A stretch of DNA of 64,000 nt from an uncultured Candidatus Saccharibacteria bacterium (GCA_964402895.1 CAYODR010000002.1:41666-105665); one strand, 5' to 3'; counted from the stretch's first letter, positions 4,054 to 50,399 are shown. Notes: generated by a model from the sequence alone, not told the origin. Translations and numbers: made by a program.

Positions 4054-5853
4054 TTAAGATTTCCTTTTTGCTTTAGATCTATCTGTTTCTGTAAGATACT
4101 GCTTACGAAGACGCGCTGACTCTGGTGTGATTTCTAAATATTCATCATCACTCATCACCTCAAGACCCCGCTCAATAGTCATGAGAAGTGGCGGGGTAAG
4201 ATTTACTGCTTCATCACTTCCACTTGCGCGCATGTTGGTAAGCTGTTTTCCTTTTGTTGGGTTTACAGTCATCTCTTCTCCTTTAGAAGTATTACCGATA
4301 ACCATACCTGCATATACTTCTGTTTGTGGACCAATATAGAGAGTCCCCCTATCTTGAAGCCCCCAAAGAGCAAAAGCTAGAGCTTTACCTGTCTCCATAG
4401 AAATCATAGAGCCTACACTCTTGCGAGTTATTTCGCCTGCATAAGGTTGGAATCCAAGAACTCTTGAAGACATGATACCTTCACCATGAGTATCTACTGT
4501 AAACTGACTTCTATATCCCAGAAGTCCACGAGTAGGACCAGTAAATATCATACGCACAGTGGCATCATTCATTTGCATATCGCCCATTATGAATCCTCTC
4601 ATACCAAGCTTTTCAATAATCACACCTTGATAATCAATCGGTGAATCAATAGTCACTTCTTCAAAAGGCTCACTCTTAACACCATCAATATCTTTGATGA
4701 TTACTTGTGGTTGAGAGATTTGCATTTCATATCCTTCACGGCGCATAGTTTCAAGAAGTACCGCAATGTGCATTTCTCCACGACCAAATACTTTAAAACC
4801 TTCTGCTAATCTGCTTTCATCTGGAGAAAAATCTACCTTAAGACCTACATTCACCTCAAGCTCTCTTTCAAGTCTTTCTCGAATCTGACGACTTGTTACA
4901 AATTTTCCTTCACGACCAGCGAATGGAGAGTTATTTACCAAAAAATCTAAGACAATAGTTGGTTCATCAATAGTAATGGCAGGAAGAAGTTCTGCTTCTT
5001 TTTCTTTACTAATAGTCTCACCGATAAAAATATCCGGAATACCAGCAATCATCACAATGTCTCCTGCTTGCGCTTCAGAAACTTCTTCACGAGTAAATCC
5101 ACGGAATGTGAAAAGCTTTACTATTTTTGATGCACGCACTTCACTTCCTACGCCTTCTACATATACAGTATCACCTGCTTTAGCCACACCCTCATACACA
5201 CGACCCACAGCAAGACGCCCTAGGAAATTATCATATGCCAAGTTGAAGGCCTGCATACGAAAAGGTTTAGTTGTGTCATTTTGTGCAACCGGAACTTTTT
5301 CTAAAATAGTTTCAAAAAGTGGTTGAAGATCCTTTTTTTCATCTTCAACATTTTTCATGGCTACACCATCACGCCCAATAGCATATACGGTCGTAAAATC
5401 TAATTGCTCATCATTTGCACCAAGCTCCATGAAAAGCTCAAAGACAGCGTCATGAGTTTTTGATACATCACTCCCTGGTTTATCTATTTTATTGATTACA
5501 ACAATAGGCTTAAGCCCAAGCTCAAGAGATTTTTTAAGTACAAAACGAGTTTGAGGCATTGGACCCTCTTGAGCATCAACAATCAAAAGCACAGAGTCTA
5601 TACTACGAAGCACGCGCTCTACTTCACTACCAAAGTCCGCGTGACCCGGAGTGTCTACAATGTTGATTTTTGTGTCTTTATAATAAACTGCAGTATTTTT
5701 TGCGTATATAGTAATACCTCTTTCAGATTCAATTTGGTTTGAATCCATAGAGCTACCCTCTTTCATCTCACCTGAAAAAGCAAGCATCTTGTCTGTAAGT
5801 GTGGTTTTTCCGTGGTCCACATGTGCAATAATTGCAATATTTCTAATTTCCAT
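4054..5853 (-). CDS. typA: translational GTPase TypA/BipA
   Basis: 599 aa; G1 [22 protein letters not shown]; EF-G-like domain order with BipA-specific C-terminus. Confidence 0.9.
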   Translation of the reverse strand: MEIRNIAIIAHVDHGKTTLTDKMLAFSGEMKEGSSMDSNQIESERGITIYAKNTAVYYKDTKINIVDTPGHADFGSEVERVLRSIDSVLLIVDAQEGPMPQTRFVLKKSLELGLKPIVVINKIDKPGSDVSKTHDAVFELFMELGANDEQLDFTTVYAIGRDGVAMKNVEDEKKDLQPLFETILEKVPVAQNDTTKPFRMQAFNLAYDNFLGRLAVGRVYEGVAKAGDTVYVEGVGSEVRASKIVKLFTFRGFTREEVSEAQAGDIVMIAGIPDIFIGETISKEKEAELLPAITIDEPTIVLDFLVNNSPFAGREGKFVTSRQIRERLERELEVNVGLKVDFSPDESRLAEGFKVFGRGEMHIAVLLETMRREGYEMQISQPQVIIKDIDGVKSEPFEEVTIDSPIDYQGVIIEKLGMRGFIMGDMQMNDATVRMIFTGPTRGLLGYRSQFTVDTHGEGIMSSRVLGFQPYAGEITRKSVGSMISMETGKALAFALWGLQDRGTLYIGPQTEVYAGMVIGNTSKGEEMTVNPTKGKQLTNMRASGSDEAVNLTPPLLMTIERGLEVMSDDEYLEITPESARLRKQYLTETDRSKAKRKS

Positions 5854-7943: not shown

Positions 7944-8024
7944 TATGGTTATTATACAAATATTAGTAAATAATAAAAGCTTCTATACAATCTTTACATC
8001 ATATTTTATGGTATATGTCAATAG

Positions 8025-8111
8025 CGGAGGATAGGAGATTCGAACTCCTGAGGGCATTACTACCCTGCCACCTTTCCAAGATGGTGCACTAGACCGCTAT
8101 GCGAATCCTCC
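8025..8111 (-). tRNA. tRNA-Ser (anticodon GGA)
   Basis: Manual fold: acceptor GGAGGAT/ATCCTCC, 3-bp D-stem, anticodon stem CCATC/GGTGG, loop TTGGAAA, long variable arm, T-arm GGAGTTCGAATCTCC. Confidence 0.8.
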
Positions 8112-9480: not shown

Positions 9481-9518
9481 ATTCTCTAAATAATTAAACT
9501 TGCACCAAATTCTTTTAG

Positions 9519-9605
9519 CGGAACCGGTGGGATTCGAACCCACGAGGGCTTTTACACCCTGCCTCTTTAGCAAAGAGGTACATTCGACCACTCTGACACG
9601 GCTCC
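9519..9605 (-). tRNA. tRNA-Ser (anticodon GCU)
   Basis: Acceptor GGAGCCG/CGGTTCC, anticodon stem CCTCT/AGAGG, loop TTGCTAA, long variable arm, T-arm GGGTTCGAATCCC. Confidence 0.8.
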
Positions 9606-10114: not shown

Positions 10115-10117
10115 AAC

Positions 10118-10165
10118 AATAAAGAAAGGCATATCCAAAAAGATATGCCTTTCTTTATTAAAACA
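10118..10165. terminator. bidirectional hairpin terminator
   Basis: aaagaaaggcatatc..gatatgcctttcttt perfect 15-bp stem with A/T flanks. Confidence 0.6.
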
Positions 10166-10204
10166 TTTAATTATGCTAATATCATAAACACAAAGACCAT
10201 TACT

Positions 10205-10294
10205 GGAAGCGTGGATGAGTGGTTGAAATCAACGGTTTACTAAACCGTCAGGCTGTAAAAGGTCTCGTGGGTTCAAATCCCACCGCTTCCGCCA
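10205..10294 (+). tRNA. type II tRNA (Ser-like, encoded CCA), apparent anticodon ACU
   Basis: Acceptor GGAAGCG/CGCTTCC+G+CCA, 3-bp D-stem, anticodon stem ACGGT/ACCGT with loop TTACTAA, long variable arm, T-arm GTGGGTTCAAATCCCAC. Confidence 0.6.
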
Positions 10295-11066: not shown

Positions 11067-11336
11067 CTAAAAAGATTCATATATATCTTTTCTATGACCC
11101 ACAGCAAATAAAACTGCCTCATCATTTTCTATGTAAAAAATACCACGATAAGATCTATTGATTCTAAAAGAAAAAACATTTCCACTACCAATTCCTTTTA
11201 ATTTTTTAATATGTAATTGTGGATGAAAAATATTCTCCAGTAAAAAATCTTCCTGTTTTTCAAGAAGTACTCTATCTTTATTTTCTAAACGCGCAACCAT
11301 TTTTTTATAATCACTTGTTTTGAAAATTTTTATCAT
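11067..11336 (-). CDS. type II toxin, RelE/ParE family
   Basis: 89 aa; 4-nt overlap (ATGA) with upstream antitoxin; ...IKKLKGIGSGNVFSFRINRSYRGIFYIEN..VLFAVGHRKDIY. Confidence 0.7.
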   Translation of the reverse strand: MIKIFKTSDYKKMVARLENKDRVLLEKQEDFLLENIFHPQLHIKKLKGIGSGNVFSFRINRSYRGIFYIENDEAVLFAVGHRKDIYESF

Positions 11337-11569
11337 TTCTTATTCTTTAAAGATTTTTTATATGCTGATAAGATTTCATTTTTATTAGAATAATTTCCCA
11401 AAGAATCTGTTGGCAACTTTGAAATCGTAATACCCTGATTAATTATAAATTGTCTTAATGAAGCATTTATAATATCTGCTAAAGAAAAGCCCAGCTCTCC
11501 TGCTAATTTTTTAGCTTTATCTTTTAGGTCCTTTTTAGTTCTTATCAAGATAGTTGTATCCATATACAA
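11333..11569 (-). CDS. type II antitoxin (RelB/DinJ-like RHH)
   Basis: 78 aa; TILIRTKKDLKDKAKKLAGELGFSLADIINASLRQFI; upstream 24-bp perfect palindrome atacaaaagtatatacttttgtat (11573..11600) as candidate operator. Confidence 0.6.
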   Translation of the reverse strand: MYMDTTILIRTKKDLKDKAKKLAGELGFSLADIINASLRQFIINQGITISKLPTDSLGNYSNKNEILSAYKKSLKNKK

Positions 11570-11665: not shown

Positions 11666-12245
11666 ATGAAAATTGGATTAGACTTTGACGGTGTAATTGC
11701 TGACTGTGGTCAACTTAAATCACAGGCAGCAAAAGAAATCTATGGTATAGATGTACCAAGAGAACTTTTTAAAAGAGAAATCCTTATTGAGAACGGAATA
11801 ATGTCCGGTAATCAATATAGTGAATTTCAAAAAATAATCTATCACACCATGGAATTTGGGTTAAGAATGGAACCTGTAAAAGATTCATTTGAGTTTATAA
11901 ATAAACTTCTCGATCTTGGATACAGCGTAGAAGTCATAACCTCAAGATCTGACTCATCGCTTGATGTAGCCAAAGAGTGGTGTAAAAAGAATGGCTTGAA
12001 CATTCAAAAATTCACAGGAGTTGGGGGGGGGTAGAAGTAAGGCTCGGGCCTGCCAAGGTTTAGACATCTATATAGATGATGACCTGGACAAGATTATCCC
12101 TCTCGCAGTCATTGTGCCTCATAGATTTTTATTTTCTTGGGGGTATAATGAACAAATTTTAGAACAAAACCATGCAAAAAGAATTCATTCTTGGAAAGAA
12201 TTCTTTTGTGAAATAATGCTTCTCTCAGATATGCGATCTTACTAA
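11666..12245 (+). pseudogene. HAD-family 5'(3')-deoxyribonucleotidase-like gene, split by frameshift at a 9-nt poly-G tract
   Basis: N-terminal ORF (GLDFDGVIAD motif I) stops at 12034; C-terminal ORF (...DIYIDDD motif IV) continues in +1 frame from 12021; deleting one G fuses them. Confidence 0.65.
12023..12031. repeat. homopolymeric G9 tract (candidate slipped-strand site)
   Basis: ttGGGGGGGGGtag in a ~30% GC genome. Confidence 0.8.
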
Positions 12246-13441: not shown

Positions 13442-15619
13442 ATGGAAAAAATTAACCTAGAAAGCCCGATTTCAGACATCATCCGCTTAAAAGAAAATAT
13501 AAAACTAGGCTTAGACCGTCTTAAAATCCACACAATCAAGGATCTTCTTTACCACTTCCCTACAAGATACGCAGATGCTAGCGTATTTACTTCTATTTCT
13601 GGATTAAAAGATGGAGAGACTGCTACTATCCGTGGTACTGTTCAAAATGTAAATACAAAAAAATCATGGAAGACAAAAGTGCCGATGAGTGAAATGGTGG
13701 TTGAAGATGTAAGTGGTAGTATTAAGGCTATCTGGTTCAATCAAGCATATCTTGCCAAAATGATATCTAAAGGAAATATTGTAGAACTCACAGGAAAAGT
13801 ATCTATGTATAAAGATACTCCGGCATTAGTTAATCCTATTATCCGAGAAGAAAAATCTATGCCTATAGATAATCATGATTCACTTTTTGGTGATGATACA
13901 AAAGACGGCATACTAACACCGATATATCCTGAGACCAAAGGAGTTTCTAGTCTATGGTTTTCCCATACTATATCCAGAGCTCTCTCAAAATTAGAAGACA
14001 TACCAGAACACATTCCGAAAGAAATACTTGAAAAATATTCTCTTCCGAACATAAAGTCGGCTTTAATTTGGATACACAGCCCTAAAAATAAAAATGATGC
14101 AACTATTGCAAGAAAAAGATTTGCTTTTGATGAAATCTTTTCTATCAATGTAGTTCGTCAACAAGAAAAAAATCGTATAAAAAATATTAAAGCTTATAGT
14201 ATAGATATGAGTACTATTGATATGGAGTATTTTATGAAAAGATTTTCTTTTAAGCTCACAGATGCTCAGCAAAAATCAGTCAGCTCTATTTTAAATGATC
14301 TAGAACAAGATGTCCCAATGTCTAGACTACTTGAAGGTGATGTCGGTAGTGGAAAAACAGCCGTAGCAGCAGTGGCAGCATACGCAACTGTCATGAATAG
14401 GCCCAACAATACAAAGGGCGCCAAGCAGACATTTGGAAACCTACAAGTTGCGTACATGGCTCCAACTGAAATCCTAGCTACTCAACACTTTGAATCTTTT
14501 ATAGAGCTTTTTGAAGGTACAGGTATATCTATTGCACTAATTACCGGAAGTGGATGCAGAAAATACCCAAGTAAAGTTGCATCAAATACTAAAAGTTGGA
14601 CAAATATTTCCAAAAGCCAACTTTCTAAATGGATTGAAAATGGAGAAATCCCCATAGTCATCGGTACACATGCACTCATTCAAAAAAGTCTAAACTTCAA
14701 ACACTTAGCCTTAGCCATCATTGATGAGCAACATCGTTTTGGACTTAAACAAAGACAATCTTTAGCAAAAAAAGACACACACTTTCCACATTTATTATCA
14801 ATGACTGCAACACCTATTCCCCGAACTCTTGCGCTCACTATCTATGGTGACCTTGATTTATCTATCTTAGACTCTATGCCAGAAGGCAGAAAACCAGTAA
14901 AGACTATTCTGACTCATCCTGAAAAAAGAGATAATATGTACTCAGAAATTAAAAATCTTCTTAAAGAAGGTCGTCAGCTTTATGTCATCTGCCCCAGAAT
15001 AGATGAACCAGACCCACAAAAACAAAAAGCTCTACAACTAAAATCCGTAAAGTCAGAAGCAGAAAGACTTAAGAAAGATATCTTTCCTGAATACGAAATA
15101 GATATCTTGCATAGTAAAATGAAAAAAGATGAAAAAGAAGAAGTTATGCAAGCTTTCAAAAATAAAGAAATAGATATTTTGGTAGCAACATCAGTTGTTG
15201 AGGTGGGAGTAAATGTACCCAATGCAACAATCATCATCATTGAAGGCGCAGAAAGATTTGGACTTGCCCAGCTCCATCAACTAAGAGGAAGAGTTATCAG
15301 ATCAAGCCATCAAGCATATTGCTACATACTAGCAGATATAAAATCAGAAAAAACTTCTGAGAGAATGAAGTATTTTATAGAAGCAAAAAATGGTTTTGAA
15401 TTAGCTGAATATGATCTTGGTATGCGCGGTAGTGGAGAGCTTATAGGAAAAAGTCAGTGGGGTGTCAGTGACATCGGAATGGAAGCACTGCGTAATCTAA
15501 AATTAGTTGAAGCAGCTAGAGATAGTGCCCAAGAGCTCGTGTCAAAAGACCCAGATCTAAAAAATAATTCTAACCTTTCTAAAATAGTCTCTAAATACGA
15601 AACTATGCACTTTGAGTAA
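13442..15619 (+). CDS. recG: ATP-dependent DNA helicase RecG
   Basis: 725 aa; wedge domain, helicase motif I DVGSGKT, motif II DEQHRFG, motif VI QLRGRVIRS. Confidence 0.9.
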   Translation: MEKINLESPISDIIRLKENIKLGLDRLKIHTIKDLLYHFPTRYADASVFTSISGLKDGETATIRGTVQNVNTKKSWKTKVPMSEMVVEDVSGSIKAIWFNQAYLAKMISKGNIVELTGKVSMYKDTPALVNPIIREEKSMPIDNHDSLFGDDTKDGILTPIYPETKGVSSLWFSHTISRALSKLEDIPEHIPKEILEKYSLPNIKSALIWIHSPKNKNDATIARKRFAFDEIFSINVVRQQEKNRIKNIKAYSIDMSTIDMEYFMKRFSFKLTDAQQKSVSSILNDLEQDVPMSRLLEGDVGSGKTAVAAVAAYATVMNRPNNTKGAKQTFGNLQVAYMAPTEILATQHFESFIELFEGTGISIALITGSGCRKYPSKVASNTKSWTNISKSQLSKWIENGEIPIVIGTHALIQKSLNFKHLALAIIDEQHRFGLKQRQSLAKKDTHFPHLLSMTATPIPRTLALTIYGDLDLSILDSMPEGRKPVKTILTHPEKRDNMYSEIKNLLKEGRQLYVICPRIDEPDPQKQKALQLKSVKSEAERLKKDIFPEYEIDILHSKMKKDEKEEVMQAFKNKEIDILVATSVVEVGVNVPNATIIIIEGAERFGLAQLHQLRGRVIRSSHQAYCYILADIKSEKTSERMKYFIEAKNGFELAEYDLGMRGSGELIGKSQWGVSDIGMEALRNLKLVEAARDSAQELVSKDPDLKNNSNLSKIVSKYETMHFE

Positions 15620-16733: not shown

Positions 16734-16796
16734 AGGTAGTAAACTAATAAAATAAACTCCCTGCGTACACAAGATGTATGCGGGGATTTTTTAATG

Positions 16797-16870
16797 TGGG
16801 AGTAGATGGATTCGAACCATCGACCGCAGAGGTATAAGCTCTGTGCTCTAACCAACTGAGCTATACTCCC
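16797..16870 (-). tRNA. tRNA-Ile (anticodon UAU)
   Basis: GGGAGTATAGCTCAGTTGGTTAGAGC A CAGAG-CTTATAC-CTCTG CGGTC GATGGTTCGAATCCATC TACTCCC A; Ile-like body with TAT anticodon. Confidence 0.75.
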
Positions 16871-20360: not shown

Positions 20361-20735
20361 GGGGATGACAGGTTTCGATATATAAATGCTTTAAATATAT
20401 GCATACCGAGCATGAATAAACTCGTTAAATTTATTCAAAACGATTAACTGGCAACAGTATCGCAAAAGTAAAGTCACCTTTTAGTGGCTTTGCTCCGGCA
20501 TTCGCTTAAATAAGCCAATCTGGTGTCGTACGAAGTGAAACTTGATAACTTCATTACGGCAAAATTCATCAAGTTATAGTTTTATACTGTCTTGATATAA
20601 AACTGAAAATAAAAGACTCGAAGAAATATCATTTTGTAAGGTTTATAGATTTTCTTTTAAAAAACAAAACCATACTAAGTATGTAGATTATATTTAATGC
20701 CTTATATACACGGGGTTTCGATACCCCCATCTCCA
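20361..20735 (+). ncRNA. ssrA: transfer-messenger RNA (tmRNA, ssrA)
   Basis: 5' GGGGATGACAGGTTTCGA pairs with 3' ...CATCTCC+A (tRNA-like acceptor); T-arm GGGGTTTCGATACCCCC; internal tag ORF ...AKVKSPFSGFAPAFA-TAA; directly after smpB. Confidence 0.8.
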
Positions 20736-20742
20736 CAAAAAA

Positions 20743-45860: not shown

Positions 45861-47051
45861 TTAAGCAACAACTTTCGTTACCACTCCGGCACCTACAGTA
45901 CGACCTCCTTCACGGATAGCGAAGCGCATTTGATCTTCAACTGCTACAGGTACAACAAGCTTAACCTTGATTTTCACAGTATCACCTGGCATAACAAGAT
46001 CTACTCCTTCTGGAAGAGACACTTCACCAGTAACATCTGTTGTACGGATGTAGAATTGAGGTTTGTAACCATTGATGAAAGGAGTGTGTCTACCACCTTC
46101 TTCTTTCTTCAAAACATAGATTTCACCTTCAAATTCTGTGTGAGGAGTAACTGAACCTGGTTTCGCAAGAACTTGTCCACGAGTTAGGTCTTCTTTCTTC
46201 ACACCGCGAAGCAAGATACCTGCGTTGTCACCTGCTTGACCTTGATCAAGAGATTTGTTGAACATTTCAATACCAGTAACAGTTGTTTTTGCAGTATCTT
46301 TAATACCAACAATTTCAATTTCTTCACCAACTTTTACGATACCTCTTTCAACACGACCTGTTACCACAGTACCTCTTCCTTCAATAGAGAAGATATCTTC
46401 GATAGGCATAAGAAATGGCTTATCTGTATCTCTTTCTGGAAGTGGGAAATAGTTATCAAGTGCATCTGCTAATTCAGAAATCTTTTGTGCCCATGGGTCA
46501 TCCATAGATGTTGCTTCAAGACCTTTAAGAGCTGAACCGCGGATGATAGGACAATCCTTATCAAAACCTTGTTTCTCTAGGATTTCACGGATTTCTTCTT
46601 CTACAAGTTCGATCATATCTTGATCTTCTACAAGATCACATTTGTTTAGGAATACGATCATCTTTGGAACACCAACTTGTTTTGCAAGAAGGATGTGCTC
46701 ACGAGTTTGTGGCATTGCACCATCTGTCGCTGCCACCACAAGGATAGCACCGTCCATCTGAGCAGCACCAGTAATCATGTTCTTGATGTAGTCCGCGTGA
46801 CCAGGAGCATCAATGTGCGCATAGTGACGAGTAGGTGTTGAGTACTCGTTGTGAGAAATGTTGATAGTAATACCACGAGCTTTTTCCTCAGGTGCACCAT
46901 CAATTTCATCAACCTTTTTCATTTTTACATCTTCACCTCTTAGGTTAAGGACGTGAAGGATAGCCGCACTTAAAGTTGTTTTACCGTGGTCAACGTGACC
47001 AAGTGTACCAACGTTTACGTGTGGCTTTGAACGATCAAAAGCTTCAGCCAT
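45861..47051 (-). CDS. tuf: elongation factor Tu
   Basis: 396 aa; [21 protein letters not shown]. Confidence 0.95.
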
Positions 47052-50040: not shown

Positions 50041-50045
50041 TCATG

Positions 50046-50363
50046 TGTTGTACTAGTAAGCCGAATTCTGTTTAAATGATTATTTATCTAGGATGTAAAT
50101 TACTCTACACCTCAAGCGACACTCCAGAATAAATCTGGCACGGCCTTGCACACAAGTAAGGATTTAGCCGTTTCAATTTTATAGTTACCTATAAAGCTTA
50201 TCCCAAATGGGATACCTCTACCTTTCGGTTTTGGCGTCTCTGTTCGCACCTCGCACCTTGCGATGGATGGGTATTACCCACTACTCTGCTCCTTGATAAA
50301 TCAAGGGTGTGTTCGGACTTTCCTCACATAACCTAAAGCTATGCGCAATCAAACAGTACAACC
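50046..50363 (-). ncRNA. rnpB: RNase P RNA (bacterial type A-like, reduced)
   Basis: On minus strand: P4 strands GAGGAAAGTCCGAACAC (50325..50309) and ACAGAATTCGGCTTAC (50072..50057); GGTGCGAGGTGCGAAC P10/11-like block; P1 pairing TTGTACT/AGTACAA at ends; GC content well above flanks. Confidence 0.8.
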
Positions 50364-50399
50364 ATTATTACTTTACTTGAAATGAGTTAAAAGTAAAGA

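Follow-up and report, generated by a model that had tools for sequence, protein, structure and literature searches.

A conserved tRNA-Ser(ACU) lineage in CPR bacteria and uncultured phages that may read AGU with an unmodified A34

The window, by which we mean the whole 64,000-nt stretch of DNA that was analyzed, is bacterial chromosome with a GC content of 34%. ARAGORN found a total of four tRNA genes in it: tRNA-Ser(GGA) at 8024..8111 (minus strand), tRNA-Ser(GCU) at 9518..9605 (minus strand), tRNA-Ser(ACU) at 10205..10294 (plus strand), and tRNA-Ile(UAU) at 16796..16870 (minus strand). The three serine tRNA genes form a local cluster, in which the GGA gene falls under the gathering score of the Rfam tRNA model. 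The GCU gene, also identified by Rfam and pairwise alignment, lies 600 nt from the ACU gene, as an earlier note on this DNA had stated; it is a diverged paralogue that covers AGC and, by G:U wobble, AGU. A 3′ CCA is encoded in the ACU gene and is absent from its GCU and GGA neighbors.

By Pfam, the genes around tRNA-Ser(ACU) encode NADAR, DoxX, a bacterial PH-domain protein, a ParE-like toxin-antitoxin pair, and the RecG helicase (13442..15619, plus strand; also identified by tblastn), which served as our synteny anchor. A hairpin 3′ of the DoxX gene (10117..10160, no strand assigned) separates DoxX from the tRNA. About 20 nt upstream of the tRNA there is a weak sigma-70-like promoter match (TTAAAA-16-TATCAT, 10158..10185, plus strand), which the promoter scan did not place above chance in such an AT-rich stretch (7 sites versus 5.2 expected). 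The ParE-like toxin ORF (11067-11569, minus strand) has a weak Pfam match, below the cut-off, and overlaps a small upstream ORF; the two resemble a type II toxin-antitoxin pair and lie in a variable stretch between tRNA-Ser(ACU) and RecG. An HAD/NT5C-like gene (11666-12245, plus strand) is split into overlapping ORFs at 11666-12034 and 12021-12245 and may represent a frameshift or a pseudogene. The window also contains tmRNA (20361..20738), RNase P RNA (50041..50364) and, at ~26-43 kb, a long run of short same-strand ORFs resembling a ribosomal-protein operon.

ARAGORN called tRNA-Ser(act) with its ends at exactly 10205..10294 on the plus strand, and the Rfam tRNA model (RF00005) matched 10205..10291 with a score of 57.3 bits (E = 9.5e-10; gathering score 29). 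Reading the sequence directly, we found an acceptor stem of GGAAGCG/CGCTTCC, a 3-bp D stem (GAT/ATC), an anticodon arm of ACGGT-TTACTAA-ACCGT (10232..10248, plus strand), a long variable arm with its own stem, a T arm of GTGGG-TTCAAAT-CCCAC, the discriminator G73 (10291), and the genomically encoded CCA (10292..10294). This is the cloverleaf expected of a bacterial type II tRNA-Ser, with a 7-bp acceptor stem, a D stem of 3-4 bp, a 5-bp anticodon stem closing a 7-nt loop, and a 5-bp T stem. A single-sequence minimum-free-energy fold recovered the acceptor, anticodon, variable and T arms. The tertiary nucleotides U8, A14, G18 G19, U33 and T54 Psi55 C56 are present in both the sequence and the Rfam alignment, and they are invariant columns in the alignment of the family described below. 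The anticodon ACT (ACU in the RNA; 10239..10241, plus strand) is the complement of the serine codon AGU, and the Rfam alignment gives the 7-nt loop as UUACUAA. The earlier note had described a type II tRNA with an ACU anticodon, a 3-bp D stem, a long variable arm, an encoded CCA and the loop TTACTAA, and all of this proved correct.

The same note had suggested that the call might be misfolded, with the true anticodon elsewhere. We found no support for a shifted register and consider it vanishingly improbable: ARAGORN, the Infernal/Rfam alignment and an RNAalifold consensus place the anticodon identically, and the stem pairs flanking the loop covary. The pair that fixes the register of the loop, U31:A39, covaries among the 109 unique homologues listed (UA in 106, AU in 2, CG in 1), and the anticodon is therefore not misplaced. 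The gene at 10205..10294 is a genuine serine tRNA gene with the anticodon ACU. With G73, G1-C72, G2-C71 and A3-U70 it has identity elements that predict charging with serine by SerRS.

We looked for relatives of the gene in a species-representative genome collection of 596 Gb using a generic pattern, AGTGG N{12,18} YTACTAA N{20,34} GGTTCRAATCC, which fixes only parts of the D, anticodon and T loops and for which we estimated ~7 chance matches. At least 120 genome loci matched, and ARAGORN gave tRNA-Ser(act) in 119 of the 120 listed. By title, 71 of these 120 belong to CPR/Patescibacteria, spread over Paceibacteria/Parcubacteria, Microgenomates, Saccharibacteria, and Gottesman-, Levy-, Woese-, Roizman-, Magasanik-, Falkow-, Kaiser-, Zambryski-, Taylor- and Nomurabacteria. 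Eight more bear no title beyond "bacterium" or "uncultured bacterium", and 25 are TPA MAGs titled Gammaproteobacteria or Pseudomonadales (L006, L010, L013, L019, L026, L030 and 19 others). The latter labels look wrong, since these loci have the CPR-type Ser(ACU) and the Ser/Arg(GCG) tRNA neighborhood seen in Microgenomates (compare L019 with L028). The remaining 16 of the 120 are from Planctomycetes, Verrucomicrobiota, Flavobacteriales and others, and some of their sequences are identical to viral ones. MAGs of different phyla (Planctomycetes, "Chitinophaga") share an identical Ser(ACU) in L003, L064, L077 and L102, with L014 one base off, and the Flavobacteriales locus L018 has the same Ser(ACU) as viral locus L137; these six are probably phage or mis-binned contigs. 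Polynucleobacter sp. 31A-FELB, a cultured isolate, has a gene resembling Ser(ACU) (L022, 3195-3284), with acceptor mismatches at A4-C69 and C6-C67, that groups with viral L202, L212 and L227 and is possibly a hybrid tRNA at a prophage att site.

The family shares one cloverleaf. Across at least 109 unique genome sequences 99.2% of pairs are canonical, and among the 109 listed, double-sided compensatory changes occur in 20 of 25 pairs; the 5-bp stem of the variable arm covaries (alignment columns 46-64). G2-C71 is present in 109 of 109 and A3-U70 in 107 of 109 unique sequences listed, and G1-C72 is conserved. Among the 119 genes listed, the loop with its closing pair reads UUUACUAAA in 111, G73 is found in 116, and CCA is encoded in 47. 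Such a pattern is what purifying selection on a functional RNA leaves behind. In 63 of the 119 ACU loci listed the fetched stretch also contains a GCU gene, at a median distance of 232 nt, and in 43 of the 119 the two genes are no more than 600 nt apart.

GCU and ACU are one base apart, and among about 185,000 genomes such mutants must occur, so a recent G34-to-A change in tRNA-Ser(GCU), as the earlier note had proposed, a sequencing error, or a decaying pseudogene copy had to be weighed. A fresh mutation, however, would leave the rest of the gene identical, and in the window the two genes differ at 21 of 88 aligned positions (76% identity). Their anticodon stems are wholly unlike (ACGGT/ACCGT in the ACU gene, CCTCT/AGAGG in the GCU gene), and acceptor pair 5-68 and the variable arm show compensatory swaps. 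An intact GCU gene co-occurs, and the conservation of the homologues and the class-specific pair G30:C40 described below likewise speak against these accounts. We rejected the pseudogene and recent-mutant accounts as very improbable.

We also compared the two genes where both were captured from one genome. In 60 of 60 such cases among the matches listed, the nearest relative of the ACU tRNA in other genomes was another ACU tRNA, although the search pattern fixed the loops and so inflates similarity within the class. Within a genome, ACU and GCU genes are on average 63% identical by multiple alignment and 68% by pairwise alignment. Pairwise identity to each of the other serine isoacceptors in the same locus (UGA, GGA, CGA) is 67-71%, that to GCU being no higher, and we therefore discarded descent from one particular serine isoacceptor for want of signal. 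The pair G30:C40, which the search pattern does not include, is found in 119-120 of the 120 ACU genes listed, whereas 45 of 60 GCU paralogues have C30:G40; U31:A39 is present in 117 of the 120 ACU genes listed. Together with the loop U32 U33 A34 C35 U36 A37 A38, these two pairs make up the family signature, and on alignment evidence Ser(ACU) is conserved as a distinct isoacceptor lineage.

To obtain a sample not selected for ACU, we fetched 80 metagenome loci by way of the neighboring RecG protein (40-64% amino acid identity). Of these, 22 CPR loci carry Ser(GCU), and only one of the 22 (L259) also carries Ser(ACU); the T loop of L259 escapes our search pattern, which therefore undercounts ACU genes. 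This excludes a universal presence of Ser(ACU) in CPR and shows it to be an accessory, patchy and dispensable gene. Taken with the 43 of 119 and 63 of 119 loci in which the two genes lie close together or within one fetched stretch, the sample gives a rough estimate of one in ten genomes of the window's clade with Ser(ACU). The conserved backbone runs from Ser(GCU) to an RRM protein, RecG, Ile(UAU) and a 631-aa protein. In the ACU-bearing relatives L024, L038, L085, L097 and L259, the ACU and GCU genes lie about 100-600 nt apart, arranged in tandem or divergently, and in the equally distant relatives L242 and L245 GCU stands alone at the same place. The window RecG found matches by tblastn in 16 ACU loci. 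Its 69% amino acid identity to that of L024 (Paceibacterota), together with the shared synteny, led us to group the window with Paceibacteria (CPR).

Codon usage was compared with the presence of the gene, using as control the share of NNU in the six other two-codon NNY boxes. The window, for which the earlier note had proposed comparing AGU with AGC, has 291 AGT and 59 AGC codons, an AGU share of 0.82 against a control of 0.79. In 70 ACU-bearing CPR loci the AGU share was 0.617 (control 0.663), while in 56 CPR loci without ACU it was 0.499 (control 0.679). The 17 RecG-syntenic loci with ACU gave 0.601 (control 0.643) and the 20 GCU-only loci 0.479 (control 0.669). The effect of group was significant (t = 4.8, p = 5e-6), as were the clade-matched comparisons of 0.601 with 0.499 (p = 0.003) and with the GCU-only 0.479 (p also 0.003), in an association that is correlational, uncorrected for phylogeny and based on 8-20 kb per genome. 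AGU is specifically under-used where only G34 exists, and the deficit is gone with A34, as would be expected if the tRNA served in translating AGU. The codon choice of highly expressed genes differs from the bulk: the EF-Tu gene (45861-47051, minus strand), unlike the window average, encodes arginine more by CGT (10) and CGC (3) than by AGA (5). It has only one AGT codon and is for that reason uninformative on AGU.

The family is not confined to bacterial genomes. At least 120 IMG/VR contigs matched the same pattern, and tRNA-Ser(act) was called in all 120 listed (102 unique sequences). The viral genes are typically part of tRNA arrays that also contain Arg(UCU) (34 listed loci), Thr(UGU), Asn(GUU), Gln(UUG) and Ile(UAU), and Ser(GCU) accompanies them in only 1 of the 120 loci listed. 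Viral L194 is 85.6% identical to the window tRNA and has its acceptor stem and CCA in common. Six Ser tRNAs of cultured GenBank phages, found by BLAST, which is blind to the anticodon, had UGA, GCU or CGA and none had ACU. The viral arrays (listed loci L121-L240) contain other A34 tRNAs as well: Arg(ACG) four times, Asp(AUC) twice, and Gly(ACC), Thr(AGU) and Leu(AAG). Of these, the Asp and Gly anticodons likewise figure among those listed as universally absent.

These occurrences raise the possibility of an accessory tRNA that spreads horizontally and is selected mainly in the conflict between phage and host, with efficient reading of AGU secondary; it could, for example, be an AGY decoder whose altered anticodon loop evades an anticodon nuclease directed against tRNA-Ser(GCU). 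The viral arrays that lack GCU, the patchy distribution in CPR and the resemblance of L194 to the window gene would all fit, as would the position of that gene in a variable stretch beside the ParE-like pair. Among the matches listed, moreover, CCA is encoded in ACU and absent from the paired GCU in 16 loci, with the reverse in 8. Single linkage at ≥85% identity joined 105 genome and 53 viral sequences in one large cluster, a weak hint of exchange, as the loops fixed by the search pattern inflate such clustering. Against this, we found no nuclease or defense gene linked to tRNA-Ser(ACU), and the window copy does not have a phage-type context, its setting being chromosomal and syntenic across Paceibacteria. 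Escape from a nuclease would not by itself explain the shift in AGU usage, which a decoding role predicts. We regard selection mainly through phage conflict as distinctly unlikely.

The earlier note had rightly judged A34 in a split codon box to be anomalous, and had offered deamination to inosine as one explanation, the resulting ICU anticodon reading AGU, AGC and, weakly, AGA. The loop UUACUAA differs only at positions 32 and 36 from CUACGAA, which we take to be the TadA substrate loop of tRNA-Arg(ACG). Deamination of an engineered split-box Phe(AAA) tRNA has been inferred in E. coli (10.64898/2026.05.15.725136), and four of the viral loci listed carry Arg(ACG) as well as Ser(ACU), so that TadA is presumably present there. 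However, the editing motif of TadA is UACG, found at all 15 mRNA sites in E. coli, and even relaxed sites retain the final G (PMC10027721); in tRNA-Ser(ACU) U33-A34-C35 is followed by U36, not G36. An orthogonal tRNA with the ACU anticodon was not inosine-modified in E. coli and read AGU at 9.4% and AGG at 0.36%, with AGC and AGA below detection (PMC11066159).

The lineage also appears to lack tRNA-Arg(ACG), TadA's obligate substrate. In the listed ACU genome loci, mostly CPR, and 868 kb of RecG-anchored CPR loci we counted 37 Arg(GCG) genes (6 + 31) and no Arg(ACG), and Ser(ACU) was the sole tRNA with A34. This agrees with the report that CPR appear to lack tRNA-Arg(ACG) and use Arg(GCG) instead (Shulgina and Eddy 2021, PMC8629427), and would make Ser(ACU) an A34 gene in a lineage without the I34 system. 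A tblastn search of the window and all loci with an E. coli TadA query gave no match in the 64-kb window. The only TadA-like match in 1.45 Mb of pooled CPR sequence was L120 4701-5288, in a sample for which the probability of meeting no TadA is 0.24 even if every genome had one. We rejected this match as TadA: NCBIfam and Pfam assign it to generic CDA-fold deaminases, and its score was 51.8 bits against an equivalog cut-off of 150. It is the first of two adjacent CDA-fold deaminase genes (4701-5797, plus strand) 1.5 kb downstream of Ser(ACU), neither of which reaches the TadA cut-off; the first has an HGE...PCxxC motif.

Inosine would also be costly. AGA is the commonest arginine codon in the window (395 codons), and in EF-Tu it aligns to arginine at 4 of 5 positions, on which ground we rejected reassignment of AGA. 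An ICU anticodon would therefore cause widespread Arg-to-Ser missense. An intact GCU gene is kept beside ACU in at least 63 of 119 loci and would be redundant if ACU bore inosine, which argues that ACU does not cover AGC. In view of the missing Arg(ACG), the UACU loop and the use of AGA as the main arginine codon, we consider inosine at A34 unlikely. Neither misfolding nor recent mutation had survived, and with inosine disfavored the reading that the data support best, an unmodified A34 that reads AGU only, is one that the earlier note did not list. By analogy with in vitro work in which, depending on the tRNA background, unmodified A34 can read an entire four-codon box (Boren 1993, as cited in PMC11066159), low-level misreading of AGA, AGG and AGC by tRNA-Ser(ACU) is possible.

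The tRNA-Ile(UAU) of the window is found near RecG in 12 RecG-anchored CPR loci and 3 listed ACU loci as well. Its presence suggests that AUA is read by a U34 tRNA and not by way of lysidine (TilS). Both this gene and Arg(GCG) are in keeping with a decoding set that has little need of modification.

Our preferred reading, to which we assign a probability of roughly 0.65, is that tRNA-Ser(ACU) is a conserved accessory lineage of CPR bacteria and uncultured phages whose A34 is unmodified and which reads AGU. Modification state, expression and decoding range are here deduced from the genes and their surroundings. The encoded A34 would stay adenosine, as CGN is decoded by Arg(GCG) and not by Arg(ACG) with TadA, and a UACU loop without G36 would not be converted to inosine. 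Within an ACU anticodon, unmodified A34 would discriminate strongly for U. The tRNA would then be devoted to AGU, which it would read by Watson-Crick pairing and which dominates the AGY codons of this AT-rich Paceibacteria (CPR) genome, and would leave AGC to the neighboring tRNA-Ser(GCU). Seryl-tRNA synthetase does not read the anticodon; serine charging should therefore survive a G34A change intact. For Asn, Asp, His, Tyr, Cys and Phe, identity depends in part on position 34, and serine is, to our knowledge, the split-box amino acid whose synthetase does not use anticodon identity.

Ever since Crick's paper on wobble, the expectation has reportedly been that split codon boxes avoid A34. Split-box ANN anticodons have been listed as universally missing (Ehrlich et al. 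2021, PMC8007984), on a bacterial table of about 100 cultured species from 13 phyla and no CPR. A 2026 preprint restates the absence from a GtRNAdb survey of 4,047 bacteria (10.64898/2026.05.15.725136); it counts 695 ANN genes other than ACG, of which 19% belong to split boxes, with Phe(AAA) or His(AUG) making up half of that fraction, and names no Ser(ACU) lineage. Both sources treat seven split-box ANN tRNAs, Ser(ACU) among them, as universally absent and infer ancient purifying selection. These surveys drew on cultured genomes with essentially no CPR. The literature that we searched, which left many subscription papers outside its coverage, contained no account of a tRNA-Ser(ACU) family in bacteria or phages. 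Ser(ACU) is a serine isoacceptor whose class of anticodon was believed to be missing from nature. We would give even odds to the fuller statement that a natural, conserved Ser(ACU) lineage in many CPR species and phages is the first documented conserved exception to the absence of split-box ANN tRNAs, that it persists through the indifference of SerRS and an I34 system that is lacking or evaded, and that its presence shifts AGU usage.

If this is true, the absence rule would stem from sampling and from where TadA occurs and not from a universal constraint, and the blindness of its synthetase to the anticodon would suggest a reason for the special position of serine. One accessory tRNA gene would be tied to a measurable shift in codon usage, and CPR would offer a natural setting in which to study how unmodified A34 decodes. 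For annotation, Ser(ACU) genes should not be thrown out as pseudogenes, and in phages they may aid host prediction.

The closest known relative in kind is bacterial tRNA-Ser(GCU), likewise type II with a long variable arm, G73, the same first three acceptor pairs and U33, C35, U36, A37 and A38 in the loop, serving the same codon box, with its gene usually no more than a few hundred nt from that of Ser(ACU). It differs in having G34 and mostly C30:G40, where Ser(ACU) has A34 and a near-invariant G30:C40, and it reads both AGU and AGC, whereas Ser(ACU) is predicted to read AGU only. The loop of tRNA-Arg(ACG), whose gene also encodes A34, is nearly identical to that of Ser(ACU), but it has G36 and is served by TadA, whereas Ser(ACU) has U36 and occurs in lineages with Arg(GCG) and no Arg(ACG) among the listed and sampled loci; I34 is useful in the former and would be harmful in the latter. 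The tRNA-Leu(AAG) with I34 known in Oenococcus and Streptococcus is similar in that A34 is encoded in the gene. Phage tRNA arrays hold homologous Ser(ACU) genes in at least 120 uncultured viral contigs, but the window copy is chromosomal, RecG-syntenic and paired with GCU.

Mycoplasma tRNA-Thr(AGU) has an unmodified A34, as cited in PMC11066159 and PMC3711424. Like Ser(ACU) it has a genomically encoded A34 in a reduced, AT-rich genome and works without inosine, as we predict for Ser(ACU). It serves a four-fold family box, however, in which promiscuity is harmless, while the AGN box is split between AGY for serine and AGR for arginine, AGA encodes arginine here, and promiscuity would produce missense. 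The engineered ACU-anticodon tRNAs of E. coli (Schmitt 2024, PMC11066159; Raval 2026 preprint) have the same anticodon, and there an unmodified A34 was strongly specific for AGU and tolerable. Those tRNAs are artificial and were made because a natural one was thought absent, whereas Ser(ACU) is a natural, conserved gene.
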